64,000 nucleotides of DNA from Ignavibacteriota bacterium (lineage in GTDB: Bacteria; Bacteroidota; Ignavibacteria; UBA10030), in assembly GCA_963727825.1 (NCBI GenBank), contig CAVSHO010000012.1, positions 1 through 64,000 of the forward strand, read 5' to 3'. The notes beneath the pieces were generated by a model, which worked only from the letters and a program-made list of their open reading frames with translations, did no database searches and had not been told where the DNA came from. Below are positions 12,025-62,022 of this stretch, piece by piece. Every line of letters starts with the position of its first letter. Position 1 is the stretch's first letter. Made by a program: the position numbers and the translations under genes.

Positions 12025-12441
12025 CTAAGTTGGGAGGGAGTTATACTCCCGACTGTATTGCAATTTTTAGTTCGGGAGAACATCTCCCTCACAACTTTGG
12101 CACAAAAGTAATACTCATCCAAGTGAATAGCAAGGTGCGGACTACACTTCTCGTTGCACAGAAGTTATAATCTAAGTTGGGAGGGAGTTATACTCCCGAC
12201 TGTATTGTAATTTTTAGTTCGGGAGAACATCTCCCTCACAACTTTGGGTGGCTCGTGTAATTGTGTCGGTCTTCTGCCCGTTGAACCTTGATTTTGTGAT
12301 CATGCTCCTACTTCCAATCCCTTCCCTGGTATACAGAGTTGATGCACATCCGGTACAAAAGTAATGCCTAAGTTGGGAGGGAGTTATACTCCCGACTGTA
12401 TTGTAATTTTTAGTTCGGGAGAACATCTCCCTCACAACTTT
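12025..12441. repeat. REPIN-like 74-bp hairpin array A (copies 12025-12098, 12172-12245, 12368-12441)
   Basis: CTAAGTTGGGAGGGAGTTATACTCCCGACTGTATTGyAATTTTTAGTTCGGGAGAACATCTCCCTCACAACTTT. The arms are imperfect inverted repeats. Confidence 0.92.
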
Positions 12442-12673: not shown

Positions 12674-12796
12674 CTGTCAGGACGCCCGCCCAACCCGCCA
12701 CAAAGCATGGCGGGTAAACAAGACGGCAGGTAAGTAAATCCTGACAGCACACGGAATTTATTCCTTTCACCGTCAGGACGTAAGTCCTGACGGCAC
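12674..12796. repeat. GTGCyGTCAGGAC-family REP pair with nested hairpin insertions
   Basis: CCGTCAGGACGTAAGTCCTGACGGCAC at 12770-12796. A second copy is split by GCCCGCC...CCCGCCAcaaagcaTGGCGGG+TAAA...GGCAGG. Confidence 0.7.
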
Positions 12797-12802
12797 AACC
12801 TT

Positions 12803-15800
12803 CTACTTCTTATCCAGCACTTCCCTTACCATTTTCAGAACTTGTGTGAAATCGTACGGTTTGTACAGAAAATGTTGTACACTTACTTTCAGCAATTCCG
12901 ATTTCATATTTGGGTCAATATACCCTGATGCCAAAATAATACGCTGATTCGGATTGATTTTTTTGATCTTGTTGCACACTTCCAATCCGGATATATTAGG
13001 CAATCCGAGATCGGTAAGTACAAGAGCGATATCGTTTTTTCTTTCTTGATAGATTTTCAGCGCCGTAAATCCATCTCCGACAGAAAGAACTTTGTACCCC
13101 TTATCAATGAGCACCGTCTGAAGAGGCATCATTAGCATCTCTTCATCCTCTATAACCAACAATGTCTCTGTTCCGCCCGGGATTTCTTCCATTGTTACTT
13201 CTTTTTTCACACTGACTGGCAATACGACTTGGGACGTAGGCAGATACAAGCGGAAGGTTGTTCCCCCTGCCTTGCCGGCAGGCAGGTTGCCGAGCTCACT
13301 GTCTACATCAATAAAACCTTTGTGAGATTGTATCACTCCGAACACTACTGACAATCCCAAACCCGTTCCTTTTCCTATTCCCTTTGTTGTGAAAAATGGC
13401 TCGAAGATACGCTTACGTGTCTCTTCGGTCATTCCTTCGCCTGTGTCACTAACTTCGATGCAAACATAACTGCTTGCATCAGCGGTGGGATGCTGAGAAC
13501 GCAGACTTACAACAGATACCATCCGCGTATTGATGGTGAGAACACCGCCCTTCGGCATTGCATCTCTTGCATTGATACAAAGATTCATCAATACTTGATG
13601 CAACTGCGAACGATCTGCATTGATGTATGAAATCGATTTATCGAAATTCTGTGAACAGGTTATAAACTTGGGGAATGTCTCCATAACCATAGTAACAGTT
13701 TCCATGACAATATCATTTACATTCAATGCACCGAATGCAGTTTCCGATTTTCTTGCAAACAATAATATTTGCTGGACAAGTGTTTTGCCACGATCCACAG
13801 CTTTCGTGATGGTTTTCGTAGCAAGATCCAATTTCTTTGGATCGTCCTTAAACCTCTTGATGCTTGTGTTGTATCCCAATATAATTCCAAGAATATTGTT
13901 AAAATCATGCGCTATCCCTCCGGCAAGCGTTCCTAATCCTTCCAGCTTTTGCATTTGTCGCAGTCCCTCTTCCATTTGCTTCTGCTCGGTGATGTCTTCC
14001 ACCGTTCCATCGTAATACAAAGTTTTGCCTTGAGAATCGCGAATCGCTCGAGCGCTTTCTAGCACAAAGATTGCCGTGCCATCCTGACAAATCCATTTTG
14101 ATTCATGACCAATTACCTCACCGTCTCTTTCGATCTTTTCAAGAAACTCTTTGCGTTGATAGGATGATTCAAAACCATCTTTTTTAAGATTTCTTTCAGC
14201 AAGTTTTTCAAAAGATGAATAGCCGAGCATTTTTACTAATGCCAGATTTGCCAATAATATGTTACCCTCGGGGGCCGTTCTATAAAGACCGATTGTGGCA
14301 TTCTCATAAAGTGAACGAAAACGTAACTCACTTTCTCGTAACTCTTGCTCTACCCGATTGCGTTCTGTGATATCCTGTCCAAGAGCAATAGTGGAGATTA
14401 TTGTTTTACCATCTGCAGTATATATATTTGCCGTATTCCATAATACAATGCGATTACTTCCATTCTTGCAACGAATAGGTATTTCGAAAGATATAAGGTT
14501 TTCTCCATCCGATGTTCTTGAAATAAGAGTTGATATTTCTTTTTGCTTTTCATCAGGAAAAAGCATTTCCGGATGTTTGCCAATGACATCGTACATTGTA
14601 TAACCAGTCAACCGTTCAAATGCCAGATTGAACCTCGTGATCCTAATGGTATTATCCCAAACCATAATAGGTGCATTCGTAAAACTAAACAGATTTTCAA
14701 GATAGTCACGAGTTTCACGTAATTCTTCCTCCGCCCGTTTGCGCTCGGTGATGTCGCGCATACTGCCTACAATCTTCAACGGTGTGCTGTTGGCATCGAA
14801 TTGTATCTTTGCAGAAATGGAACTCGGCACTTGTGAACCATCGCGGTTCTTTAGCATAACCTCATAATCTGAAACACTGCCTTGTCCTTGTAATAATGCG
14901 AGGAAAGCTTCTCGCCCGCCGGCAATAGAATAGAAATCGTACATCGACTTCCCTATGAGATCATCGCTATGATATTGTTCTTTCGAAATGATCTCGATGG
15001 AAGGGCTTACTTCGAGTATCGTTCCATCCAAAGCAGCCTCATAATACACATCCTGCACGTTCTCAAAAATGCCACGATATCTTTCTTCACTCTTGGACAG
15101 TGCTTCCTCTGCCCGCTTACGCTTGGTGATGTCCATTATATATCCAATAACTTTCACAACATTGCCGTTTTCCAGTATAGGTATTCCGATAGTCTGCACC
15201 CACAATTTTTCACCACGCGCATTAATAAACCTCGCTTCCAAGTCATAAGGTTCGCCATTAGTTATTGCTTTATTGAATGCATCAGAAACTAAAGACCTGT
15301 CATTCGGGTAATAAAAATTAGCTCCTTCTTCTGTCGAAGACAATTTGTCTTTCGCTATACCATAGATATTGAAAATCTCATCTGAAAAATTTGCTTTGTG
15401 CGCTTGAACATCATATTCCCAACCACCGACTTTCGCAATTTTTTGAGTTTCATTTAATAATTTTTCACTTTTTTTCAGTGTTTCTTCTGCCCGCTTGCGC
15501 TCGGTGATGTCAGTGGCAATACCCACGAGCGCGATATTTTGTCCTTGCTCATCTCGAACAAAGGATGTCGAAAGCGAAATCGGGAAGTCGCGGCCATCCT
15601 TCGTCCGATTCATCAGTTCGCCACTCCATCCTCCAGTTAATGTCGCAGCGAGAATATCACGAGTAGTTTCGGGAGGATTGTTTAGTGACCGCACTACATT
15701 GATGTTCTTTCCCAGAATTTCGTGCTCACTATAACCATACGTTTTCAAAAATGCGTTGTTGACAAAGAGGACAATATTATTCAAGTCCGTGATACTCACG

Positions 15801-16637
15801 CACTCTGCGATGCTTTTCAGTGTATGAGCAAGGAGGACGACCTGTTTCTCAACCTGCTTGCGCTCGGTGATGTCGTGAACAATTGAATGCAGCACATTCT
15901 TGTTTCCGATTGAAATATTGCTGCTGAATACTTCAACGTCCCGTATCGAACCATCTTTCCGCCTGTGTTTGAATTCGAATTGAACTCTTTTTTGAGACTT
16001 TACTTTCTGCATTTCCTTATTAACTTCTTCGGGTGGGAGAACATTGATCTGATAGATTTTCATCCTTTTCAATTCTTCACAGTTCCAACCATAATAGACT
16101 GCCGCGGAATTATTGGCATCAATAATCTCTCCAGATTCCGGATCGATCAGTAATTTCACTGCGGCATGATCTTCGAATATTTTACGGAACTTTTCTTCGC
16201 TTTCGTGCAGTGCTTCTTCAGACTGCTGTCGTGATTTCTTTTCCTTTGATTCATCAAGCGCGCGTTTAATTGCTAAAGGAAGCCTAATTAATCGATCCTT
16301 TAAGACATAATCGATAGCTCCCTGCTTGATAAGTTCGATGGCAGTTTCTTCGCCGATTGATCCGGAAACGCATATAAAGGGAACCTCCGGGCAGATATTC
16401 TTTGCTAATTTCAATGCTCCGTGCGCATCAAATCCGGGTAATTTGAAATCACTTAAAATGAGATCATATGTATGATTGTGAAGTAAAGATGTAAATTCCT
16501 TTTTCTTCTCAGGTACAATCCATACTGAGATCGTATCCTGCATCTAAAAGTAGTTCACGTATGATCTCGATGTCTCGAGGCGAGTCTTCAAGATATAAGA
16601 CTTTCAAAGCTATCTTATCTATGGTCTTCTTTTTCAT
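12803..16637 (-). CDS. Hybrid sensor histidine kinase (REC, six PAS, HisKA, HATPase, REC), frameshift near 16512
   Basis: The upstream frame [22 protein letters not shown]...SMDC joins ORF 12803..16543. AHDFNN and GTGLGL motifs are present. Confidence 0.9.
13266..13286 (-). mobile_element. 21-bp in-frame palindromic micro-insertion CCTG+CCTGCCGGCAAGGCAGG
   Basis: The paralog reads GGCAA|GGGAACAAC (GKGTT). Here the protein reads [12 protein letters not shown]. Confidence 0.85.
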
Positions 16638-16928
16638 TTGATTAGATCCTCTCTGGCGGTAATTCATTAATGACCGCCAAAAACACTCCGACTTGTTTTT
16701 TTCACTTCAATAAAATCTTGAAATAACATGCGATACAAGGCATACTATTGATATGAAAGTTAGCGAGTATTCTTTGCCGATGCGGGGAACAGTTGGATAA
16801 CAATCTAATTATGTTTTTATACGTGTCCATATCCCTTACCTCCAATCCCTATAATTGGCGTATGAGTTATAACACTGCTGGTGTTAAACTAACAAACCAC
16901 TGAGTGAAAAGCAAGATGCGGCTGCGCA

Positions 16929-17755
16929 CTAAGTTGGGAGGGAGTTATACTCCCGACTGTATTGCAATTTTTAGTTCGGGCTCCTTTTACATTTTATTGA
17001 TGCGGGAAATAACCCTAAGTTGGGAGGGAGTTTTACTCCCGACCCAATTCAGAACATTCAACAGTAATAACCGAGTGATCATCTTAAAGATAATTCCTCG
17101 CACTTGTTCCGTTGTACAGGATTTTCGTGCAAGTAATCTAACTTCTGTTAAAAGAAATCTTTTGCATCATTTGCGATGGAATGGTAACAAACACGCTCCG
17201 CCATTCAACAATAGTGGTCGTAATAAAATAGAGATTAACGCCGGGGGTAATTTTCCAGTGTCTCATATTTTATTATTGCAATTTTTAGTTCGGGAGAACA
17301 TCTCCCTCACAACTTTGGGTGGCTCGTGTAATTGTGTCGGTCTTCTGCCCGTGGAACCTTGATTTTGTGATCATGCTCCTACCTCCAACCCTTTCCCTGG
17401 TTTACAGAGATGATGCACATCCGGTACAAAAGTAATGCCTAAGTTGGGAGGGAGTTATACTCCCGACTGTATTGCAATTTTTAGTTCGGGAGAACATCTC
17501 CCTCACAACTTTGAAATTCTTCGGAATGATTTGGTGCGAAATGGTGTCGGATATATGTATGCTGAAACTTGCTTTTGTGTCCATACTCTTACCTCCAATC
17601 CCTATAATTGGTGTATGAGTTATAACACTGCTGGTGTTAAACTAACAAACCACTAAGCGAAAAGCAAGATGCGGCTGCGCACTAAGTTGGGAGGGAGTTA
17701 TACTCCCGACTGTATTGCAATTTTTAGTTCGGGAGAACATCTCCCTCACAACTTT
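16929..17755. repeat. REPIN-like hairpin array B (16929-16980 truncated, 17015-17316 split by the RAYT remnant, 17439-17512, 17682-17755)
   Basis: Same 74-bp unit as array A, and the inter-repeat segments are also shared with array A. Confidence 0.92.
17044..17266 (-). pseudogene. Internally deleted REP-associated tyrosine transposase (RAYT, Y1/HUH family)
   Basis: Three fragments in different frames: MRHWKITPGVNLYFITTTIVEWRSVFVTIP, DFF*QKLDYLHENPVQR and SARNYL*DDHSVITVEC. The HUH segment is missing. Confidence 0.85.
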
Positions 17756-17808
17756 GGTACAAAAGTAATACTCATCCAAGTGAATAGCAAGGTGTGAGCT
17801 GCACACAG

Positions 17809-17844
17809 CAAAGCCCGATTCCGTAGTTACAGAACCGGGCTTTT
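17809..17844 (-). terminator. Probable terminator of the suf-sod operon
   Basis: AAAGCCCG...CGGGCTTTT hairpin about 35 bp past the sod stop. Confidence 0.6.
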
Positions 17845-17878
17845 ATTGTTACTGATGACTCGTAACTTTTAACTGCTT

Positions 17879-18517
17879 TTACTTCCCAAGAACTAACTTC
17901 TTATAACGCTCGTTTATCCTTCCCCAATGCAGATTTGCGATGAAGTTATCTATAAATTTTGCTCGCGCGGGACCATCTTTGTGATAATATGCATGCTCGA
18001 AGACATCCAAAGGAATTAACGGCACTGCGCCCCAAATTGCGCCGTATTGATGTTCATCGACGAGTGCATTTAATAAACGACCGGAGTAAAGACGATCGTA
18101 CAGAAGCAATCCCCAACCGCCAAGCTTTGCCGATATTGCGGTCGCTTTAAAATCTGCTTTCCACGCGTCGAATGAACCAAAATCCTTTTCGATAGCCGCT
18201 TTGATTTCCAGACCCTTCGATGGATCGCCATCACCACCAAGAACATCCCAATAAATTTCATGCAGAAGTGCACCGGAATGATTCCAACTGAAACGCCGTT
18301 TCAATTCTCCGATAACGCTGTAGTTGCCGTTTGCGGCAGAACGATCGGCCGTTTCTAGAGCTTTTTCAATATTGTTCAGTGCAGTTACGTATCCCTTTTG
18401 ATGTGTATTATAATGCCAATCGGTTGTCTCCGGACTCATAACATTGGCGAGTAAATTTTTCGCTTCTTCATCTGAGTACGGGCGCTTGTTGAACTTCCAT
18501 TCGTATGCCATAGCCAT
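17879..18517 (-). CDS. Fe/Mn superoxide dismutase
   Basis: HYNTHQKGYV, LHEIYW, DFGSFDAWK, GWG and DVFEHAYY motifs. Confidence 0.9.
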   Translation of the reverse strand: MAMAYEWKFNKRPYSDEEAKNLLANVMSPETTDWHYNTHQKGYVTALNNIEKALETADRSAANGNYSVIGELKRRFSWNHSGALLHEIYWDVLGGDGDPSKGLEIKAAIEKDFGSFDAWKADFKATAISAKLGGWGLLLYDRLYSGRLLNALVDEHQYGAIWGAVPLIPLDVFEHAYYHKDGPARAKFIDNFIANLHWGRINERYKKLVLGK

Positions 18518-23303: not shown

Positions 23304-24750
23304 TTATCCAACGCTTCCTTCCAAACTTACACCAAGCAATTTCTGCGCTTCAACTGCAAACTCCATCGGTAATTCGCGGAATACTTCTTTGCAAAAACCA
23401 TTGACAATCAGATTCACGGCATCCTCTGCAGAAAGTCCGCGCTGTTTACAATAGAATATTTGATCATCGCCAATTTTTGATGTTGTTGCTTCGTGCTCAG
23501 CTTTAGCGGAAGTATTTCTCACTTCGATATATGGAAACGTATGCGCGCCGCATTTGTCGCCTAACAACAGCGAGTCGCACTGGGAATAGTTACGCGCGTT
23601 CATTGCGGCTTTTTTCATCTCAACTAATCCGCGATAGGAATTCTGTCCGTGTCCTGCTGAAATTCCTTTCGAAACAATTGTGCTCTTCGTATTCTTCCCA
23701 ATGTGAATCATCTTCGTACCGGTATCCGCTTGCTGGTAATTATTTACAACCGCGACAGAATAGAATTCACCAACCGAATTGTCTCCTATCAGAAGCACAC
23801 TCGGATATTTCCATGTAATCGCAGAGCCAGTTTCTACCTGTGTCCATGAAATTTTAGAATTCACTCCTGCACATTTACCGCGCTTCGTTACAAAATTGTA
23901 TATTCCTCCATCGTCCCTCCTTGTCGCCGGGGTACCAGTTCTGCACTGTCGAATATTTTATCTTTGCATTATCTAACGCAACCAATTCTACCACTGCCGC
24001 GTGCAATTGATTTTTATCCCGCATTGGCGCAGTGCATCCTTCCAAATAGCTCACCTGCGCGCCTTCTTCCGCTACGATGAGCGTTCGCTCAAACTGCCCA
24101 GTTGCAACGGCATTAATACGGAAGTAAGTAGATAACTCCATCGGACAGCGAATGCCTTTGGGGATGAAGCAAAACGATCCATCACTGAACACTGCCGAAT
24201 TCAGTGCAGCAAAATAATTATCATTCGCCGGCACGACAGAACCAAGATACTTTTTTACTAAATCAGGATGTTCACGAACTGCATCTGAAAACGAACCGAA
24301 TATAATTCCGAGCTCTTTCAGTTTTTCTTTAAATGTTGTCGCTACAGAAACGCTATCGAATACAGCATCAACAGCGACACCGGCGAGCCATTCTTGTTCA
24401 CGAAGCGGAATACCAAGTTTATCATACGTCTTCAGCAATTCCGGATCAACTTGCGATAAATCTTTGAGCAATGGCTTTTGTTTCGGTGCTGAATAATAGA
24501 CAATCGCCTGATAGTCAATTGGCGGGTACTTTATATTCTGCCAGTGGGGTTCTTCCATTGTTTGCCAATGTCGGAATGCTTTCAACCGCCATTCAAGCAA
24601 CCAAACCGGCTCCTGCTTTTTTGTAGAAATTAAACGGATGATGTCTTCATTTAAACCGGGAGGTGCTGAATCAGCTTCGATGTCAGTCACAAATCCATAC
24701 TTGTATTCTTGTGCTGCAAATTCTTCTATAGTATTTGTTTCATTGTTCAT
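23304..24750 (-). CDS. sufB: Fe-S cluster assembly protein SufB (frameshift near 23910)
   Basis: Two ORFs join at [11 protein letters not shown]|[19 protein letters not shown] and EHEATTSKI are present. Confidence 0.93.
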
Positions 24751-24772
24751 AAATTTCTCAGTCTGCAGGTCG

Positions 24773-25177
24773 TTACACAATCTGCTCCAATGTTGTGTTT
24801 TCAAGAAGCAAATTTAGATTGTGCTGCATTTTCCCAAGCGGTTTGCGAATCGTGCAGGCGTTAAAGATAGAACAATTCTCTCCATCTTTCGCGTAACATT
24901 CAGCAATCGTTGGCTTTTCTTCTTCAATTACACTTATTATTTGTGAGACCCGTAATTCATTCGGTTTCTTCGCAAGCGAATACCCGCCGTGCATTCCTTG
25001 AGTTGAAATAACAACTCCGGCTTTAGTCAGTTTCTGTAAAATCTTCGCGAGCAGCTCATACGAAATATCGAACTCCACTGCAATTTCTTTCGCAGTAAAT
25101 ACATGTCCTTTTGGGTTCATCGCCATATGCCGAAGAGCGATCAAACCATATTCCACTTTTTTTGAGAGTTGAAGCAT
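24773..25177 (-). CDS. Rrf2-family transcriptional regulator
   Basis: [15 protein letters not shown] and three C-terminal Cys. It heads the suf operon. Confidence 0.92.
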
Positions 25178-39952: not shown

Positions 39953-40055
39953 TGCCGAAGGGGGGACTCGAACCCCCACTCGATTTGAGTCGAACCTCGT
40001 AGAACGAGGCAAGCTGTATTTTGAGTCCAGTTTATCCCGACAAAGTCGGGACGCG
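39953..40055 (-). pseudogene. 3' duplicate of tRNA-Leu interrupted by two hairpin insertions
   Basis: Matches 40303-40365 except one substitution and inserts at 39995-40013 and 40031-40051. Confidence 0.9.
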
Positions 40056-40298
40056 CCTTTTCGTCAGTAACGAGTTCAATTCATAATGACCCGGTCCACT
40101 TTTAAGAAATTTCTCTCTTTTTCTTGCTTGCTGTCGATTAGGACATTCTTCTGTAAGAAGTAGTTGGAACGGTCGTCTATTTTTTGTCGATGGTACTTTT
40201 CCCTGATTGTGACGTATTAACCGCTTCTCTACATCTTCCGTCATTCCGATGTAAAGATTATTATCTTTTAGAGATTTTAATACGTACACAAAAAACAT
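40032..40298 (-). CDS. Small stand-alone GIY-YIG nuclease (UPF0213/SLX1-like)
   Basis: FVYVLKS...LYIGMT...KRLIRHN.G...STK.RRP...AR.RE.FLKSG. Confidence 0.92.
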   Translation of the reverse strand: MFFVYVLKSLKDNNLYIGMTEDVEKRLIRHNQGKVPSTKNRRPFQLLLTEECPNRQQARKREKFLKSGPGHYELNSLLTKRRVPTLSG

Positions 40299-40302
40299 TC
40301 AG

Positions 40303-40388
40303 TGCCGAAGGGGGGACTCGAACCCCCACTCGATTTGAGTCGAACTGGATTTTGAGTCCAGCGCGTCTACCAGTTCCGCCACTTCGGC
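40303..40388 (-). tRNA. tRNA-Leu(CAA)
   Basis: GCCGAAG acceptor, CTGGA-CT CAA AA-TCCAG anticodon arm, long variable arm, GGTTCGAGTCC T-arm. Confidence 0.96.
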
Positions 40389-41510: not shown

Positions 41511-42351
41511 TCACTTGCTATGGCGTGAAATAGCGGAATCGTCAAACGGCTGGTAACTCCCCAGCACGCGCACAAAAGAACAAACTTCTTCTAAATGATT
41601 TAATGCCTGACTCAGTGGATCTCGTTTAGGTATCCCTTCCACATCCAAATAGAAGAGATATTCCCACGGTTTGCCGATTATCGGACGTGATTCAATTTTC
41701 AGTAAATTAATATCCCGCAATGCAAATACAGCAAGCGCTTTGAAGAGTGCGCCGGGAATATCTTTTGCTGCAAATACGATTGAAGTCTTGACTTTGCCGA
41801 GCGGTTGAACCTGTTTTCGCGAGAGTGCAATGAAGCGTGTGAAATTGCGATGGTCACTCTCAACGTTTCGTTCCAGAATATGCAGTCCGTACGCACGCGC
41901 TGCTTGTTCGCTGGCGATAGCCGCTGCATCATTGCGTTTTCGTTCCTGGATAAACCGAGCAGCCGCTGCCGTATCATGCACGGCTTCCACTTTTACATCT
42001 TTTTAGTGTGCTGAGAAAGTTCTCGCACTGGCCAATCGCTTGCAATTGCGAGTAGATCGTGCGAATGCTATTCCGTTTTGCTTCGGGCAAAGCCATCAAA
42101 TGCAGTTCGATGCGGAGTTTTACTTCACCGATTATAAAAAGCTTATGCTTCAGAAGAAGATCGTACACCTGATGGATACTGCCGAATAGCGAATTCTCAA
42201 TCGGCACAATGCCAAAGCTTGCGGGATGATGTTCGGCATCTGAAAAGACATCGGAAAAAGCAGGCAATGGTTTTAATATAGCATGGGCCCCAAAGAATTT
42301 TCGCGCTGCTTGTTCACTAAACGCACCTGGTTCACCCTGATAAGCGATCAT
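41511..42351 (-). CDS. pheA: Prephenate dehydratase (frameshift near 41990)
   Basis: IAYQGEPGAFSE, VPIENS, NFTRF, KIESRP and VLGSY across two ORFs. Confidence 0.92.
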
Positions 42352-44479: not shown

Positions 44480-44651
44480 TTTTTTGTCTCCTATATTTTT
44501 ATTCTTAAATAATTTTCTGCGTCAATATACCCCGAAATGGAAGGAAAGTCAACGCACGAAATTTTAAACGCCTATATTGACTTTCGGAAAAAAATGGAGA
44601 TATATTAAGGTAAAGCTCATCAGTATTGATGAGTTTTTTAAATGATGTGAT

Positions 44652-44897
44652 TCCGCGATAGCTCAATGGTAGAGCATGCGGTCCGATCATCGCACAAGCG
44701 ATGATCGAGATCTCGTCCCGATAAAATCGGGACGGACTGTTAACCAGACTTTGAAATAGGGAATTATTTTTCATTCCGCGATAGCTCAATGGTAGAGCAT
44801 GCGGTCCGATCATCGCACAAGCGATGATCGAGATCTCGTCCCGATAAAATCGGGACGGACTGTTAACCAGACTTTGAAATAGGGAATTATTTTTCAT
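44652..44897 (+). repeat. Two identical 123-bp tandem units: tRNA-Asn 5' half with a 55-bp cruciform insert, plus a 29-bp spacer
   Basis: Units start at 44652 and 44775. The intact tRNA starts one period later at 44898. Confidence 0.92.
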
Positions 44898-44972
44898 TCC
44901 GCGATAGCTCAATGGTAGAGCATGCGGCTGTTAACCGCAGGGTTGTAGGTTCGAGTCCTACTCGCGGAGCCA
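44898..44972 (+). tRNA. tRNA-Asn(GTT)
   Basis: TCCGCGA acceptor, TGCGG-CT GTT AA-CCGCA anticodon arm, GGTTCGAGTCC T-arm and encoded CCA. Confidence 0.96.
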
Positions 44973-45034
44973 ATTCATTTTGCCGTACCGCAGACGGGAT
45001 TTGTTGTTTATAAGAGACTAACTCAAAACTACCT

Positions 45035-45273
45035 TTGTTTTATTTATATATACTCATCTGAATTTAATGGAATGTTTTAAGTTGGTATTAGTCCGAAAAT
45101 CTTAGAACAGCGGCTTGAATTTACCATCTTTCAATAGGTAATGGATTCACAGCACGATATCGTCCCTGGAAATTAGTATACACGAAAGGATATCCAACGC
45201 GACAGCTGGCTCGAGTGCTGAAAAGAAAATCAAAACAAGGAAAAGCAGATCGATGATTTAACATTTCATCTAA
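45035..45273 (+). pseudogene. Decayed GIY-YIG nuclease gene
   Basis: Fragments LFYLYIL, VGIS, LEQRLE, GNGFTARYRPWKLVYTKGYPTRQLA and AEKKIKTRKSRSMI, with stops and frameshifts. Confidence 0.8.
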
Positions 45274-45320
45274 TGATGTTTGGGATTATTCGGATTATTA
45301 ACCATTCCGTCGATTTCTGA

Positions 45321-45403
45321 CTGTAGGGTTGTAGGTTCTCCCGCTCCATCATAATGGAACGGGACTATTAACCCCGACGTTTTATGTCGGGGCTCTCGGA
45401 GCA
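45321..45403 (+). pseudogene. Degenerate 3' duplicate of tRNA-Asn with two hairpin insertions
   Basis: ctgtAGGGTTGTAGGTTC[hairpin]CTA[TTAA+hairpin]CTCtCGGAGC, compared with ccgcAGGGTTGTAGGTTCgagtcCTACTCGCGGAGC in the intact gene. Confidence 0.8.
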
Positions 45404-45413
45404 CTTATAAATG

Positions 45414-50212: not shown

Positions 50213-50977
50213 ATGTTTCGTTCTGCGTTCGTTTGGATTACAACATGCATACTTATTCTCCTTTGGCTTTTCTTATTAGCAATAAGTCGATTGTTTGATC
50301 ATGATCCGGTGCACTATCGGACTGGCTTTCTATTCCGAAAAATCGGGAATGCACTAACCTGGATCAATCCTGCATGGCGGCTTCACATTACCGGTGAAAT
50401 TATTTCCAATCCGCGACTGCCGTACGTCGTTGTCTGTAATCATCAATCGATGGCTGATATTCCATTGATCAGCAACTTGCCATGGGAAATGAAATGGATG
50501 GCGAAAACAGAAATATTCAAACTACCAATCCTCGGCTGGATGCTGCGGCTTGCAGGCGATATTAGTGTTGATCGAAAAAATCCACGCAGCGGCGCTCAAG
50601 CGCTCATCAAGGCACAGCATATTCTTGAACAAAAATGTTCCGTTATGATTTTTCCGGAAGGAACGCGCACTCTTGATGGACGAGTGCGGCAATTCACAGA
50701 CGGAGCATTTCATCTTGCTATCAAAGCTAAAGTCCCTATACTTCCTCTCGTCATTGAAGGTTCGCGCGATTGCATCCCGAAGAACAGTTGGAAATTCGGC
50801 AAGCCATCGGATATCTTTCTGAAAGTGCTGCCGCCAATCGAAACATCTTCATTGACAATACAGGACGTTCCTTTGCTTCGTGACAATGTCCGTACAGCAA
50901 TTATGAAACAAATTGCAGAATGGCGCTCGGTTCCGATTGAAGCAGTGGATGGGATGATGCCACTTTCGACAAAATAG
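50213..50977 (+). CDS. plsC: 1-acyl-sn-glycerol-3-phosphate acyltransferase
   Basis: NHQSMADI and IFPEGTR. Confidence 0.9.
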   Translation: MFRSAFVWITTCILILLWLFLLAISRLFDHDPVHYRTGFLFRKIGNALTWINPAWRLHITGEIISNPRLPYVVVCNHQSMADIPLISNLPWEMKWMAKTEIFKLPILGWMLRLAGDISVDRKNPRSGAQALIKAQHILEQKCSVMIFPEGTRTLDGRVRQFTDGAFHLAIKAKVPILPLVIEGSRDCIPKNSWKFGKPSDIFLKVLPPIETSSLTIQDVPLLRDNVRTAIMKQIAEWRSVPIEAVDGMMPLSTK

Positions 50978-51179
50978 GAAACAGCAATTTTAAAAGTCGA
51001 GAGGAAAAACGAGAAGTCAAATCTCAGATTGCTTCATCGTTAAATCTACCAAAGGGTGTGAGCATTGCAATCAGGCGGGTTAAAGCATAAAGGCAATATT
51101 TTAAGGAAGGACAATCGAGAGATTGCCCTTCTTCATTTTATACAGGAATACAAAAATAGACATAGTATTATATACTCAC

Positions 51180-52070
51180 CTACTTGGTAATATCCAAAAG
51201 CTCCTTAGGGACATGAAAACCTAATTCTTTCGCTCTTTTGAAATTTGAATGCGCTTCGCTCTTTTTGTTAAGTCGCGCGTATGCGAGCCCCCTGTCATAG
51301 TAGGCGAGTGCAAAGTCCGGGTTCAAAACGATTGCCTTGGTGAAGTCAGCAATGGCTCCTTGATAGTCCTTAAGCGTATACCTTGTCAAGCCCCTGCCAT
51401 TGTAGGCTTCTGAATCATTCGGGTTCAAACCGATTGCCTTGGAGAAGTCAGCAATGGCTCCTTGATAGTCTTGAAGCATATACTTTGCTTTCCCCCTGCC
51501 GTTGTAGGAAATTTGTGCATCCTCAGGGTTCAAACCGATTGCCTTGGAGAAGTCGGAAATGGCTTCCTGATAGTCTTGAAGTGTATGCTTTGCGTATCCC
51601 CTGTAATAATAGACATCTGCATAATCTGGTTTCAGCTTGATTGCCTCATTGTAGTCGGTAATAGCTCCCTGACAATCTTCAAGATTAAACTTTGCGAACC
51701 CCCTGTAATAATAGGCATCTACAAAGTCCGGTTTCAGCTTGATTATTTCATTGAAGTCAACAATTGCGCCTTGATGGTCTTCTAGATTCCGCTTTGCAAT
51801 CCCTCTGAATAGATAGGCTTCCGCAAAATCCGGTTTCAGTTTGATTGCCTCGTTGAAGTCAGCAATAGCTTCTTGCCATTCGTTAAGTTCACTCTTTGCG
51901 TTTCCTCTGTGTAGGAAGGCTTCTGCATAATCTGGTTTCAGTTTGATTGCCTCATTGATGTCAGCAATGGCTCCCCGATAGTCTTGATGTATACACTTTT
52001 CGAGCCCCCTAAGATAGTAGGCTTTAGCATCATCCAGTTCCATACCGATTGACTTTTTGAACAGACTCAT
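51180..52070 (-). CDS. Tetratricopeptide repeat protein (eight 34-aa repeats)
   Basis: Repeated AY..RG.AK..L.DYQGAIADF..AI.L.P, with 102-bp DNA periodicity. Confidence 0.93.
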   Translation of the reverse strand: MSLFKKSIGMELDDAKAYYLRGLEKCIHQDYRGAIADINEAIKLKPDYAEAFLHRGNAKSELNEWQEAIADFNEAIKLKPDFAEAYLFRGIAKRNLEDHQGAIVDFNEIIKLKPDFVDAYYYRGFAKFNLEDCQGAITDYNEAIKLKPDYADVYYYRGYAKHTLQDYQEAISDFSKAIGLNPEDAQISYNGRGKAKYMLQDYQGAIADFSKAIGLNPNDSEAYNGRGLTRYTLKDYQGAIADFTKAIVLNPDFALAYYDRGLAYARLNKKSEAHSNFKRAKELGFHVPKELLDITK

Positions 52071-52320
52071 CTTATGCTCCTCGTACGTTTATACAATTAT
52101 ATTTAATAATATAACAACAAAATATGCTCTTTGACAATGACCTTCCATTTATTTAAGTTTAAATGACATTCACCTATACCAGAGAGGTTTAGTATATTTT
52201 GAAAGTTATCCACTTGATACTCAGTTCGTTCACAGCAAAACAGAATGTTTTGGAAAAATATAGATAGCTACATTTATAGATGGGTATGGAAAGGTTATTA
52301 AATTATAAAAGGAGTTTTTC

Positions 52321-52908
52321 TTGCTCTCTTGGGAATTCCAACAATTTTATAATAATTGGCTTCATAAAGCTGATTCATACAATACTGATGATTTAACAGA
52401 CTGTTTTGATAAGTTTTTTACCCTATTCGTTCTGTACAATCGTCTTTATGCCGAAACCACGTTTGAACTTGCTCGTGTCGGCAAGATTAATTTAAGTAAT
52501 CACAAATATTTCCCTGATTCAAAAGCGGCAACTTGTTATATAAAACAATTTCTTGGCGCAAATGCCATACTTGATTGTATAAATTCAAATCCATCTTCTC
52601 ATTGCGCCTTATCAAATATTATTTCTCTTATTGAAGCAGAAAGATTTCACATACTTTTGCATCTAATTACTGGTGAAGGACAACGAAAAAAGGACATTGA
52701 ACTTCTTGAATCACTTCGTTCAACAAATCCAGATTTAAAAGCAGGCGCCATTTTACAATTAATATATTCAATAAGATGTAATTTATTTCATGGACACAAA
52801 TCATTTGAAGGAGTGCAAAAAGAGATTGTTGTTCCTGTTTTAGTTATCCTTCATAATATTGTTGTATGTCTCTATAATAAACTTAACGCCGCCCTAACCC
52901 ACGGCTGA
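52321..52908 (+). CDS. HEPN-like domain protein
   Basis: N-terminal DKFFTLFVLYNRLY helix and C-terminal IYSIRCNLFHGHK (R-x4-H). AT-rich. Confidence 0.65.
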   Translation: MLSWEFQQFYNNWLHKADSYNTDDLTDCFDKFFTLFVLYNRLYAETTFELARVGKINLSNHKYFPDSKAATCYIKQFLGANAILDCINSNPSSHCALSNIISLIEAERFHILLHLITGEGQRKKDIELLESLRSTNPDLKAGAILQLIYSIRCNLFHGHKSFEGVQKEIVVPVLVILHNIVVCLYNKLNAALTHG

Positions 52909-53118
52909 AGCTGACGAAATGAGGTTGGTTTTTTTGTTCCATTATATCGTTATTCTTTATTTTGCCTTCACCATTTTGATTTGATTTCTTAAGCTGGTGA
53001 TGATGTCTTGCTGAACACGGCATCTATCCATCAAGTGCCGTATCTGATTTTCTTTCGATTCTATCTCGGCATCTAATCTTATTTCCTCACCATTTTTTTT
53101 CTGAATGTATGATGCGTC

Positions 53119-53158
53119 AAAAAAAAGAGCTGAATCCATTAAAGGAATCAACTCTTTT
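53119..53158 (-). terminator. Terminator after the tRNA-Ile2 3' duplicate
   Basis: AAAAGAG.TGA.TCC...GGAATCA.CTCTTTT with a T-run on the minus strand. Confidence 0.65.
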
Positions 53159-53165
53159 CGATTTG

Positions 53166-53241
53166 TGGGCCCTGCTGGGCTCTCCGCCAAAGGCGGATGC
53201 GCCTTCCACCAAAAAATGGCGGACAAGCTGGCGCAGAACCA
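53166..53241 (-). pseudogene. 3'-end duplicate of tRNA-Ile2 with nested hairpin insertions in the T-loop
   Basis: TGGGCCCTGCTGGGCTC[53183-53235]GAACCA matches the 3' 23 nt of the intact gene. Confidence 0.85.
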
Positions 53242-53255
53242 CGGCTTATTTTTTG

Positions 53256-53329
53256 TGGGCCCTGCTGGGCTCGAACCAGCGACCCGCAGATTATGAGTCT
53301 GCTGCTCTAACCAACTGAGCTAAGGGCCC
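53256..53329 (-). tRNA. tRNA with CAT anticodon, probably tRNA-Ile2 (lysidine)
   Basis: GGGCCCT acceptor, GCAGA-CT CAT AA-TCTGC anticodon arm and GGTTCGAGCCC T-arm. It lacks initiator features. Confidence 0.92.
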
Positions 53330-53660
53330 AATGTTAACTTAAATTAAAATCTCTTATCTATTTTTGAAGATCTACGACCCGCAGATTATGAGTCTGCTGC
53401 TCCCCGCCCGACTGCACGATGCAATCGTGCGGGCAGGTAACCAACTGTTTACCCGCCGTGCCTTACCTTTTGGCGGGAGCTAAGGGCCCGAATGTTAACT
53501 CAAAATTAACAATCTCTTATCAATTTTTGAAGATTTAGGACCCGCAGATTATGAGTCTAGATGCTCCCCGCCCGACTGCACGGAATGCATACTCGTGCTG
53601 GGCAGTTCCCAACTGATTTACCCGTCCGTGCCTTATTTTATGCCGCGAGAGCTCGACGAA
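53330..53660 (-). repeat. Two upstream tandem units: spacer plus tRNA-Ile2 5' portion with two hairpin inserts (second unit degenerate)
   Basis: Copies at 53375-53489 and about 53539-53660. Inserts at 53403-53437 and 53448-53477. The spacer AATGTTAACT...TTTTTGAAGAT is repeated. Confidence 0.85.
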
Positions 53661-53736
53661 GCTCGTGACGGGAATCTAACTATTAGATAAATTGCACATG
53701 TAAAAATAACCCACTCTTGACGATTTCTCGTGCGCA

Positions 53737-56243
53737 TCATAGATTACTTTTTACACATCCGCACAAACGTAAAGAAAGCGAATGATATTTTCCTTCAGCA
53801 ATTGAATCTGCCGGATTAATACGAACCAATCGTTTATACATTTCCGCCGCTGATGAATATCGTTGTTTGCTCTCATAGAGAGCGCCCTGCAAAGAAAGCG
53901 CCTGTTGATTGTTAGGATCTAATTGCAAGAGACGATACAATTCCTCGATAGCATCCTCTTGAAGTCCCATCGCTAAATAAATCCGGGCAATAGAAAACTG
54001 GAATGTATGGCGCTGTGCTGCGTTGGATGCTTCGCGATAGGGAATCGCATGAGTGCAACAATGCAGCAAGTCCCCTTACGTATGGATTTGATGAATCAAT
54101 TGCCTGTGCAATATGTACACTTTCGCTAGCAGCAAGAGTATCTCCTAATTGAAGGGAGAATAGTACACGAAAGATGTGTGAAAGCAGCAGATTTGGATTC
54201 ATTCGCAGCGACTGTTGCAGCATAGATATTGCCTGTTTACGGAATCCTAATTGCCAATATTTGCTTGCAACGCCAACAAATCGTTCCGCTTGTTCCAAAG
54301 GTACTGTGGTATCCTTTGCTTGTTGCAATAGTGCGATGATCTCCATATGAAAGGAAGACAGCTGGACAAACGCTCCGGCTTGCGGCATCAATCGAACTTT
54401 TTCGAACTGCATCGATGCAGAATCAAGCTCCATAGCAAACTCTTTTGCAACGGCTAGATGAAACATTCCTTCCGTATACGCGCGATGGTTCACAGTAAGT
54501 CTCTGTATAATATTTTCTGCTTCTCGTGGATTATCTTCCAGAATACAGAGCGCTTTGTGCCATGACATACTTGTTTCCGAATCCGGTGGACTATTTTTTT
54601 TGTCCTCAAATACTTTCTGCTTTTGTTGCATAACTTCATAGATTTCAATATTTGCAAAACGATGAACCTTTTTAAAGGCAAACAGTCTTGACCGAATCAT
54701 TAGACTTTCATATTCATTTAACCCTAAAAAAGAAACAGCTCCGACAATATAATGCACTGGATAATCTCTAAGAAGACGATCAAAAGCGTCTGGGCTTAAT
54801 TGCGGCTCTGCATCAATAATCTTCCGCCCATTGAGCCAGAATGTTAATTCTTTCCATCTGCTTACGACCACGGTTGAAGAATCTGAGTGCTGGACAATCC
54901 ATTCACCAGCAAGGGGAAACGGTTTTGTTAACAGCCATGGATATTCTGAATCGTTTCTGATTTGCTCATAGAACTGCTCCGGTGATTGCCTATAGTGCCG
55001 GCTATTTCTTATGTAATTCATCATCCATATTCCATTTGGAATAAGCATAATTATGATTACGGCTGCACTCAACACATTCCTCATCCGTATATTTTTCTCG
55101 ACAATCCAAATGGATACATTCTTCATACCAGCCGCACAGAAATATATCATCACAAAGAGAAACGGAAAAAGAAACCGGCCGTCATTGATCGGATATAAAA
55201 GAATAAGACCGCTGTAACAAACGAGAAATATGAATAGAAACGTAACAGTTTTAGAATTTCTCATTTGATACTTCACGCCAACTACGCACAGTATTATCGT
55301 CGCAATAACAAGCGCCCATTGAAGAATCGGATATACTGACAAAACAAATGGAACTAACGGATCATAGGCGGAAAGAAACGATACTGCATGCTGCGGATAT
55401 GCGGGAATAAAAATTAAATTACCTATTAATCGCACATACACAGAAATATTATCCTGTAAACGAGCAATAAATTCCGCTATTAGCGATTCTTTACCGGTTG
55501 TATACAAATGCATGAAAAAGAAGTTTGTATTGCGCAAAGAAGGGTTTTCAATGTTTGCAACGATTATTTCATTACGGATATACCACAATAAATACACAGA
55601 AACAGTTGATAAAAAAATGAGCAATGCATAACGATAGTTCTTTTTCCAGAGAAGAAATAAAACCGCTCCGATCATAAGTGTAAAGCCGACTTCACGTAAA
55701 AATACTCCGCAAATAATGACAATAATAAATCCTATCTTCAGCGCAAGAGAAGAATTTTCTTTTTCAAGAAATTTTTCCGCAAAGAAACCATAGAGGACAA
55801 GACAAAAAGCAAATGGCACATCAGAAAGAATTTGCGTTGAATAAATCAGCATGTATGAATTCAGTGCAAGAAATAGTGAACCGAGAAGTGCGTAGCGATC
55901 TCCAATCGTTTTTCTCAGCCACAGATAGAAAAGCAGCAAAACAAAACACCCGATAAGAAGAGTCGTCACTTTTGCCGCATACACACTTTGTGGAAAGAAA
56001 AAAGCTCCCGGAACAAGTAAAAATGGGATACATCGGGGCATGGACAACATAACAAATCGGTTCCGGTGCCGATAAGTCTTGTAGCCCTTCGCCATGAGCC
56101 AGAGAATTGGCCCACACTAAATAGCGCGCGCTATCCGGTGTATAAATAATCATATTGGAAAGAGAACAGATACCAAGAAGGAAAAAGAGTCCACATAAAA
56201 TAGTTATACCAAGATATCTGCGTAATAATAAATTTTGGCTCAT
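53737..56243 (-). CDS. ArnT/PMT-like (GT-C) membrane glycosyltransferase with C-terminal TPR repeats (two frameshifts)
   Basis: TPDSARY...PMYP, QILSDVPF and RFLFP motifs plus a TPR tail, across ORFs 55821..56243, 53912..56095 and 53737..54069. Confidence 0.78.
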
Positions 56244-61770: not shown

Positions 61771-61905
61771 AAAATAAACATCCTTGCAGTCCCGCATAGC
61801 GGGACGAGGTATTTTGTCACTCCCGCGTACGCGGGAGTCTAACGTTCTGGATTCCTCCCGACTTTGTCGGGACGGGAATGACGCCGCAAGCGGCGGGGTA
61901 TTAAA
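61771..61905. repeat. Composite palindromic element, same outer family as 3039-3173 (inverted), with a different inner REP doublet and two hairpin inserts
   Basis: ATAAACATCC...GAGGTATT[TGTCACTCCCGCGTACGCGGGAGTC...CTGGATTCC..CGGGAATGA]CGCCGCAAGCGGCGGGGTATTAAA. Confidence 0.78.
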
Positions 61906-62022
61906 TCCGAAAAAGAATTAAATTATTTTTTCTCCTTCCCCAAAAGGGAAGGTGACTAATCAGATAAAATAGTTCTGACAATTATCATAAATTATGACGA
62001 CAAATAAATAATATGCATAATA

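Follow-up and report, generated by a model that had tools for sequence, protein, structure and literature searches.

How does a working tRNA gene come to lie between broken copies of itself? The question is raised by a 64,000-nucleotide stretch of an Ignavibacteriota genome (contig CAVSHO010000012.1, positions 1 to 64,000; hereafter the window), an ordinary chromosomal stretch of a bacterium of the Fibrobacteres-Chlorobi-Bacteroidetes (FCB) group with 41% G+C, a type IX secretion tail, SUF genes, sensor kinases, transporters and three tRNA genes as called by ARAGORN and Rfam. One of the three, tRNA-Ile2, is accompanied by pieces of its own sequence that carry small hairpin inserts, and a preliminary description, made from the sequence alone, had read this as the end stage after the loss of a neighbouring GIY-YIG nuclease gene. 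Here, we find that the partial copies around tRNA-Ile2 are real and far beyond chance, and we weigh how they may have arisen against the two other tRNA loci of the window, tRNA-Ile2 loci of other genomes and the nuclease family itself.

Anatomy of the tRNA-Ile2 locus

The functional gene occupies 53256..53329 on the minus strand, is 74 nt long with the anticodon CAT, does not encode CCA and scores 71.8 bits with Rfam; ARAGORN and Rfam agree on this single tRNA call (CAT, 53255/53256..53329, minus strand). The name tRNA-Ile2 is reasonable because an E. coli gene annotated tRNA-Ile, likewise with anticodon CAT, is 87% identical to it. Read along the minus strand, the locus runs from unit B through unit A to the gene, and on through a trailer of 10-14 nt and a 3' copy to a terminator-like hairpin with a T run. 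BLAST of tRNA-Ile2 against the 64-kb window revealed collinear, same-strand pieces confined to the gene's vicinity, with all other matches in the 64 kb being 14 nt or shorter at E values of 0.79 or higher. Unit A (53375..53490, minus strand), which holds tRNA positions 1-50 with two clean hairpin inserts, was recovered as positions 1-13 at 53489..53477, positions 13-22 at 53447..53438 and positions 23-50 at 53402..53375 (28/28 identical, E 6e-11), and its tRNA-derived parts match the gene at 51/51 bases. Unit B (about 53491..53665, minus strand) is a degenerate copy of unit A and its spacer (here 53491-53538), found by alignment and by a BLAST piece matching positions 30-49 at 53558..53539 (E 3e-6). 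On the other side of the gene, repeat comparison and BLAST placed the 3' copy at 53162..53245 (minus strand), where it holds tRNA positions ~47-74 followed by CAAA; its BLAST piece matches positions 58-75 at 53182..53165 (E 5e-5), and through the tRNA end and CAAA it is identical to the gene locus (21/21).

Each 5' unit consists of a copy of positions 1-50 plus a spacer of 45-48 nt, which gives lengths of ~161-170 nt (unit A with its spacer spans 53330-53490, 161 nt), and the two units align end to end with both inserts in corresponding places. The first insert of unit A, of ~30 nt (53448-53476), directly follows GCTC at positions 10-13, and the second, of 35 nt (53403-53437), lies between GGTTA and GAGC; in unit B the tRNA-derived parts carry ~11 substitutions and 2 indels, and the hairpin stems are broken. 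The 3' copy bears one clean insert of 53 nt (53183-53235) between GGTTC and GAGCCC of the T-loop, a composite in which an outer hairpin has a second hairpin nested in its loop and is followed by a third. All three tRNA-Ile2 inserts abut the tRNA's three GCTC/GAGC motifs. The inserts fold stably, with z between -3.6 and -6.0 for four of five folded stretches (-3.85 for unit A, -3.63 for the 3' copy) and -2.4 in the 3' copy of tRNA-Leu, which is described below. A BLAST search of the whole locus against phage records returned ordinary tRNA matches only, none of them spanning a module.

Most of the anatomy in the preliminary description held up in this comparison, namely the partial self-copies on both sides with no nuclease, the two tandem upstream units of ~160 bp with the same two inserts, and the T-loop insert with its nested hairpin. 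Two details needed correction: the second hairpin is not literally TGCGCCtctGGCGCA but has a TGCGCC/GGCGCA stem around ~25 nt, within which a nested imperfect hairpin lies, and the gap between gene and 3' copy, stated as ~14 bp, measures 10-14 nt, the exact value varying with the point taken as the copy's degenerate start.

The sequences on either side of the gene are not its native flanks. The spacer between unit A and the gene (the leader, 45 nt, 53330..53374, minus strand) showed no similarity to sequence upstream of the tRNA in the 19 loci of other genomes with 60 nt of upstream sequence, closest relatives included, such that none of these upstream regions resembles a donor of the leader, and no sigma-70-like promoter was found in it. 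The trailer (53242..53255, minus strand) differs from the flank after the window's 3' copy except for the common CAAA, and it aligns weakly with the spacer of one other locus (L006, see below). The terminator-like hairpin with its T run (53119..53158, minus strand) is the native downstream flank, being 78% similar to the hairpin directly after the tRNA in a relative (L015); it was absent from the output of a simple terminator scan. Rfam at a permissive threshold returned, over 52900-53800, the tRNA and its own antisense only, the latter including a sub-threshold match to 'Plastid-ycf2 5UTR' at 53255-53329 on the plus strand (38.5 bits versus a gathering score of 65.7).

Partial copies and GIY-YIG genes across tRNA loci

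All three tRNA genes of the window have partial self-copies, as the preliminary description had stated, though tRNA-Leu has a 3' copy only, and at two of the three there is a nuclease gene or its remains. The tRNA-Leu gene (40302-40388, minus strand) is followed after 3 nt by a stand-alone GIY-YIG gene (40032..40298, minus strand; Pfam PF01541, 3e-15), whose 88-aa product is a bare GIY-YIG domain of UPF0213 type (a single domain of ~80-100 aa) with two chains named 'UPF0213 protein' as its nearest entries in the PDB (1zg2_A, E 1e-7; 1ywl_A, 1.5e-4). Behind it lies a 3' copy of tRNA-Leu (39952 to ~40055, minus strand, by BLAST) that starts at position ~21-28, carries two hairpin inserts and an intact T-loop, and is followed by a terminator; BLAST in the window revealed no 5' copy. 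The tRNA-Asn locus (44650..45405, plus strand, delimited by BLAST, repeat comparison, family hidden Markov model (HMM) and folding) opens with two 5' units of 123 bp each that are 100% identical (44650-44895), each made of positions 1-39, a 55-nt double hairpin just before the anticodon loop and a 31-nt spacer; this spacer has no match in the sequence ahead of the first unit. After the gene itself (44898-44972), ~350 nt separate it from its 3' copy, and within them is a decayed GIY-YIG fragment with stop codons (45119-45253; family HMM E 3e-4). The 3' copy (45325-45405, by BLAST) starts at position 41-42 and contains hairpins, one of them directly after GGTTC. The end of the 5' copy and the start of the 3' copy nearly coincide at the two loci that have both, with 50 versus ~47 at tRNA-Ile2 and 39 versus 41-42 at tRNA-Asn. 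An association of partial copies with GIY-YIG genes is supported at tRNA-Leu and tRNA-Asn.

Evaluating the nuclease family further, we retrieved 44 homologue clusters of the Leu-linked protein by word index, of which 11 have N-terminal extensions, and in 6-8 of these 11 the extension is a translated tRNA-Leu gene; the same read-through arrangement lies upstream of the window's own nuclease gene. At the other end, 19/44 homologues finish in R-V/A-P-T-x-S-G/R, a motif that results when the closing hairpin of the window's nuclease gene is translated, and one (P0012) reads on into the anticodon arm of a 3' copy, such that homologues with as little as ~65-70% protein identity retain the order tRNA-Leu, nuclease, hairpin and 3' copy. 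When 1.84 billion cluster representatives were searched with a profile, 27,201 family members emerged (E up to 1e-3); of the 150 best, 65 have extensions of at least 12 residues, and a T-arm-like translation occurs in 19/65 compared with 3/150 control windows. Judging from these translations, many members of the GIY-YIG family directly adjoin tRNA genes on their 3' side. A number of the family's database 'proteins' (P0005, P0009-P0011, P0022, P0023, P0075 and others) begin with a translated tRNA gene and end with a translated hairpin, which implies that gene callers ran through the tRNA. Such read-through proteins give genomic context without contigs and could be used to type the tRNA next to each member.

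Seen against this background, one could suppose that a homing-type GIY-YIG gene once lay between tRNA-Ile2 and its 3' copy, as at tRNA-Leu, and was deleted with ~10-14 nt remaining. The window itself offers a graded series to this effect, with the gene intact at tRNA-Leu, a decayed fragment with stops at tRNA-Asn and none at tRNA-Ile2; the order of parts (tRNA, spacer, 3' copy with hairpins, terminator) is the same, and the family is very large and often found right behind tRNA genes. To see what other genomes hold at this site, we scanned genome contigs with a 39-nt piece spanning the boundary, requiring an exact match, which yielded 20 tRNA-Ile2 loci (numbered with L here) of 20 species, from metagenome-assembled genomes (MAGs) of Bacteroidota and Ignavibacteria, with the tRNA identical over all 74 nt in 13/20. 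The relatives nearest by flanking genes (L003 and L004 at 85-90% nucleotide identity, L015 at 78%, L013 at 79% protein identity) all have a clean tRNA that lacks partial copies. A terminator resembling that behind the window's 3' copy comes immediately after the tRNA in L015, and the window's 3' copy therefore occupies the site of the native 3' end. Three of the 20 loci have 3' copies (L006, L017 and L016), with no clear 5' copy in any of the three: L006 has at least four tandem 99-bp units up to its contig end, L017 has two tandem 93-bp units and L016 a single copy from position 19 onward, with spacers of 13, 14 and 66 nt respectively. L008 and L012, relatives of L016, are clean, and since they are, the partial copies are by this comparison a patchy, recent gain in at least three lineages. 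Beside these, L008 shows one 10-nt match 87 nt upstream of its tRNA (E 0.2), and L020 has tandem repeats of ~57 nt right after tRNA-Ile2 (80-200).

The searches for the nuclease itself run the other way from the graded series. No GIY-YIG reading frame was found within 2 kb of tRNA-Ile2 in any of the 20 loci with the unfiltered family HMM on six-frame translations, nor by Pfam in 51 of the 245 open reading frame (ORF) segments near the tRNA, taken from five loci; at the window locus the family HMM found none in 52900-53800 and Pfam none in 52957-53226 and 52321-52908. Among the 193 family proteins examined, none reads through the 3' end of tRNA-Ile2. The presence of partial copies varies among the relatives while a nuclease gene occurs in none of them, the nearest relatives having neither, and the four genomes with 3' copies have spacers of ~14, 13, 14 and 66 nt, so that several near-complete deletions would be needed. 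A weak lead in favour of loss is a 13-nt string common to L016 (2057-2069) and the window (45309-45321; E 0.09 in 135 kb), which stands 9 nt after tRNA-Ile2 in L016, where a degenerate T-arm-like stretch follows it, and, in the window, 3 nt short of the 3' copy of tRNA-Asn; a lost nuclease element may have left it, or it may be fortuitous. On balance, we consider an earlier resident nuclease at tRNA-Ile2 doubtful, and the decay series that had been read from one window is, as far as these sequences go, not borne out by the relatives.

The same relatives bear on whether integrase-mediated islands or prophages once had their attachment site at tRNA-Ile2 and, when lost, left the pieces behind as attL and attR scars. 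Islands and prophages are known to leave a direct repeat of the tRNA's 3' part downstream of the intact gene within a variable neighbourhood, and partial 3' copies are the classic mark of such elements. The flanks of tRNA-Ile2 do vary among close relatives: in L003 and L004 the tRNA abuts an acyltransferase gene (50213-50977 in the window), whereas in the window ~2.2 kb (50978-53161) intervene between this gene and the 3' copy, and a 727-aa gene (53912-56095) is absent from L003. The extra 2.2 kb hold a tetratricopeptide repeat (TPR) gene (51180-52070, with 7.3 tandem units of 102 bp) and a 195-aa ORF, orf195 (52321-52908); Pfam and NCBIfam assigned no family to orf195 or to the 727-aa and 551-aa neighbours, except for a sub-threshold PMT_2 match of the 727-aa protein. 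This extra DNA lies outside the repeat pair, however, with only 10-14 nt between gene and 3' copy, and no tRNA remnant that might bound it was found near the acyltransferase end. Nor did we find an integrase or other mobile-element gene among the 52 window ORFs scanned, and 5'-part copies with a foreign leader, hairpin inserts and a 3'-copy start that varies among genomes are not what integration at the 3' end would lead one to expect. An island scar is therefore very unlikely here.

As these loci come from metagenomes, false joins or false repeat numbers produced by conserved tRNA sequence during assembly also have to be considered. All related records are MAGs, the L006 array runs to the end of its contig, the number of identical tRNA-Asn units is not verifiable, and some window genes are split in ways that may be indel errors. 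Yet the pieces with hairpins must have a physical source somewhere, the many differences between units A and B would not be expected of a collapsed or expanded repeat, and the same anatomy recurs at three window loci, in three independent MAGs and, for tRNA-Leu, in many protein records; an artefact thus seems exceedingly improbable. The split genes in question, in adjacent or overlapping frames, are a SufB-like gene (23875-24804 and 23304-23864) and prephenate dehydratase (41974-42351 and 41511-41990); whether these splits are genuine frameshifts or indels of the assembly affects the trust to be placed in repeat numbers.

Hairpin inserts and a possible origin of the arrangement

To place the inserts in context, we scanned the window for perfect GC-rich hairpins, which gave 33 rows or 31 distinct hairpins (two nested pairs being merged), as compared to 1-10 in 10 Markov shuffles. 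Eight of the 20 non-coding hairpins lie inside the tRNA pieces, which total 876 nt (binomial P 1e-4), 2 of these 8 being duplicates from the identical tRNA-Asn units. Intergenic clusters also occur away from tRNAs, at 61789-61952 and, nested, at 12680-12800, and a 17-mer at 61856-61872 is identical to the hairpin closing the Leu nuclease gene (40035-40051, opposite strand). The same hairpin families recur in L006, L016 and L017, and in L007 they form clusters on both sides of the tRNA (1725-1960 and 2100-2150), outside recognisable tRNA pieces. Members are thus dispersed (61856, 12680-12800, L006, L007, L016, L017), with 64 kb of the host genome covered. Six of seven insert sites in the window are clean, such that ignoring the insert restores the tRNA sequence.

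The insert positions recur as well. The exact T-loop spot of the window, between GGTTC and GAGCCC, bears a hairpin insert in all of L006, L016 and L017, and counting by 3' pieces GGTTC^GAG is occupied in 5/6 (tRNA-Ile2 and tRNA-Asn of the window, L006, L016 and L017) by at least three insert families. The four L006 units contain a homologue of the window's insert, with the same nested composite and one compensatory change of a stem pair. Those of L016 and L017 belong to another family (CCCGCCCG...CGGGCGGG) that resembles insert 2 of the window; the insertion site is GGTTC^GAGC in L016 and L017 and, in the window, GGTTA^GAGC of the D-loop region, which matches the T-loop site in 8/9 bases. From these features the hairpins look like inserted small mobile palindromes, akin to repetitive extragenic palindromes (REPs), rather than scars of decay or repair. 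A rule that an insert follows GCTC was considered and set aside as general, for it holds at 3/3 tRNA-Ile2 inserts and fails for tRNA-Asn, tRNA-Leu and intergenic ones.

Taking these observations together, we read the locus tentatively as one working tRNA-Ile2 gene lying inside the remains of an older copy of itself, and we give this reading as a whole (a break at one point, rebuilding, colonisation by hairpins, duplication on the 5' side and a nuclease acting in trans) a probability of roughly 0.4; the steps beyond the anatomy, including break, cut site and mobility, we infer from that anatomy. The gene would have been broken or invaded at one point, at positions 47-50 on the border of variable loop and T-stem, which is suggested because the 5' and 3' pieces share a boundary at each locus. 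It would then have been rebuilt by copying from a second, very conserved copy, either at once or through two events at that same point, with ends joined without homology and the old halves left behind. REP-like hairpin mini-elements with a site preference may then have colonised the leftover halves; insertions would survive only in these redundant halves, the same insertion in the essential gene being lethal. The 5' piece and leader would finally have been duplicated in tandem by unequal exchange, with unit B now decaying and unit A either kept identical to the gene or younger. The weakest step concerns what made the break, which was probably a stand-alone GIY-YIG nuclease specific for tRNA genes, like those at tRNA-Leu and tRNA-Asn, a suggestion made because of the analogy with these two loci and with phage SegB. 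It would most likely have acted in trans, such that its own gene need never have lain at tRNA-Ile2.

Two aspects of the flanks and inserts help to order these events. Simple tandem duplication was rejected as the first event, since the leader, the trailer and the tRNA-Asn spacer match no native flank; in the window, L016 and L017 alike, the trailer is unlike the flank after the last 3' copy, and leader and trailer differ from the native flanks while the native terminator follows the 3' piece. The second 5' unit, by contrast, is a tandem copy of the first. Because homologous inserts occupy the same two places in both 5' units, it may most simply be supposed that a unit already bearing its inserts was what was amplified, and the two identical 123-bp tRNA-Asn units give the same indication. 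The preliminary description had likewise placed insertion before amplification; the homology of the inserts agrees with it, although repeated insertion of site-specific elements into a younger unit A is possible, because the T-loop spot is occupied in four genomes and unit A matches the gene at 51/51 bases while unit B has ~11 changes.

Several observations nonetheless sit poorly with a single break followed by rebuilding. The 3' pieces start at varying positions among genomes (~47, 41, 38 and 19), which gives no common cut point for tRNA-Ile2, and 5' and 3' pieces are unequal in number, being 2 and 1 in the window and 0 and at least 4 in L006. No transposase, REP-associated tyrosine transposase (RAYT), integrase or other recombinase was found among the 52 window ORFs scanned against Pfam as a candidate enzyme for the hairpins, and the association with GCTC/GAGC fails for the tRNA-Asn and tRNA-Leu inserts and the intergenic clusters, with the T-loop of the tRNA-Leu piece intact. 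Neutral copies of equal age should share changes, whereas unit A has 0 and unit B ~11; gene conversion, selection or re-invasion of a younger unit A by the same elements are possible explanations. A resident nuclease would moreover still find the intact gene, and the model gives no account of how the gene escapes. All of this is to be read against an evidence base of 64 kb and 20 short loci.

Two further observations count against this reading, and they raise the question of whether pieces and hairpins are instead kept for a function, as tRNA-like decoy or processing elements, recombination barriers or homology arms of a mobile module. Window and L006 have the composite insert in conserved form, with its compensatory change, and the hairpin of the tRNA-Leu element is conserved in homologues to ~65% protein identity, both of which hint at maintenance. 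Even the spacer is weakly shared with L006, the hairpin at the nuclease end is kept in 19/44 homologue clusters with the 3' copy visible beyond it in P0012, unit A is identical at all 51 bases with well-formed hairpins, and L006 and L017 carry tandem arrays (at least four units and two units). On the other hand, the four nearest relatives lack the pieces, which are thus not needed, unit B is decaying, palindromes can retain pairing without selection, and neither an Rfam family match nor a promoter-like site in the leader was found; likewise, nothing emerged among the 8000 candidates scored when the L006 array's open frame was searched against a protein database. A maintained function thus strikes us as quite improbable. 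Besides the reading of a broken and rebuilt gene, we also entertained a more mobile one, in which the spacer plus hairpin-bearing 3' piece, or the composite hairpin alone, would be a tiny mobile module homing to the T-loop motif GGTT[AC]^GAGC of tRNA genes and their leftovers, spreading without genes of its own between unrelated Ignavibacteria and Bacteroidota at breaks made in trans by a very large family of UPF0213 GIY-YIG nucleases specific for tRNA genes. We regard this as unlikely; if it were true, the tRNA genes of the clade would be a battleground of two nested selfish systems.

Relation to known systems and meaning for the nuclease family

Integrase-borne islands are known to land at tRNA genes, as are GIY-YIG homing enzymes in phages. 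The pattern here differs in that tiny stand-alone GIY-YIG genes lie behind tRNA genes, at tRNA-Leu by only 3 nt, in that the window's tRNA genes are flanked by their own pieces, and in that hairpin mini-elements also present in other genomes have struck these pieces repeatedly at the same single-nucleotide positions. The GC clusters and double-hairpin elements of fungal mitochondria are likewise small and GC-rich, spread in AT-rich non-coding DNA and nest in each other; they differ in being organellar and in not being tied to tRNA-gene pieces.

Free-standing GIY-YIG homing endonucleases are reported at tRNA genes of T-even phages (PMC2330249). Among them is SegB, a phage GIY-YIG enzyme whose cuts inside tRNA genes fall at a T-loop-like motif (RAWTSGAAC) and lead, through recombination, to segmental amplification (PMC13096335). 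The two share a GIY-YIG gene beside tRNA genes and tandem amplification of the tRNA region, but SegB is a longer phage protein with a DNA-binding part and amplifies whole genes. In the window, by contrast, the enzyme is an 88-aa UPF0213-type catalytic domain on a bacterial chromosome, the copies are partial with hairpin inserts, and tRNA-Ile2 has no such gene. The inserts resemble REPs and REPINs (elements built of REPs), short palindromes rich in GC that are scattered through intergenic DNA and often paired or clustered; from Chlorobi and Bacteroidetes, REPs with a CGTC tag are reported for which no transposase is known (PMC3733652). Some window hairpins do begin with CGTC, for example those of the tRNA-Leu and tRNA-Asn elements, and CGTC also occurs on hairpins at 61789 and 12770. 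Unlike REPs, the three tRNA-Ile2 inserts bear neither a GTAG nor a CGTC tag, most insert types there (TCCGCC, TGCGCC and CCCGCCCG) being untagged, no RAYT was seen in the window, and fixed spots inside tRNA-gene pieces and hairpin-in-loop nesting are not part of the REP description in the sections at hand (PMC3733652). Fractured genes, in which a homing endonuclease gene lies between two halves of a host gene, are alike in having an endonuclease gene inside a host gene with parts on both sides (PMC2677866); those halves are functional and joined by split inteins, whereas at tRNA-Ile2 the halves are dead and a complete copy restores function. Full-text searches of the literature, incomplete in coverage, returned no description of chromosomal UPF0213-type GIY-YIG genes behind bacterial tRNA genes with partial tRNA copies, nor of hairpin inserts recurring at one T-loop position of tRNA copies.

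As a separate observation, the window contains a repeat family of ~75 nt in seven plus-strand copies (seeds at 12025, 12172, 12368, 16929, 17015, 17439 and 17682; regions 12025-12440 and 16929-17760), which flank a sensor-kinase gene (12803-16543) on both sides and each have internal inverted repeats; Rfam returned no match over 16500-17900 at E up to 0.1.

For the tRNA-Ile2 locus itself, the useful result is the negative one, in that the proposed loss of a nuclease is unsupported there. Should the link between partial tRNA copies and the nuclease hold, part of the large UPF0213 family, with its 27,201 cluster representatives, would gain a function, and there would be a testable source of instability at tRNA loci as well as a model for how REP-like elements choose their sites.

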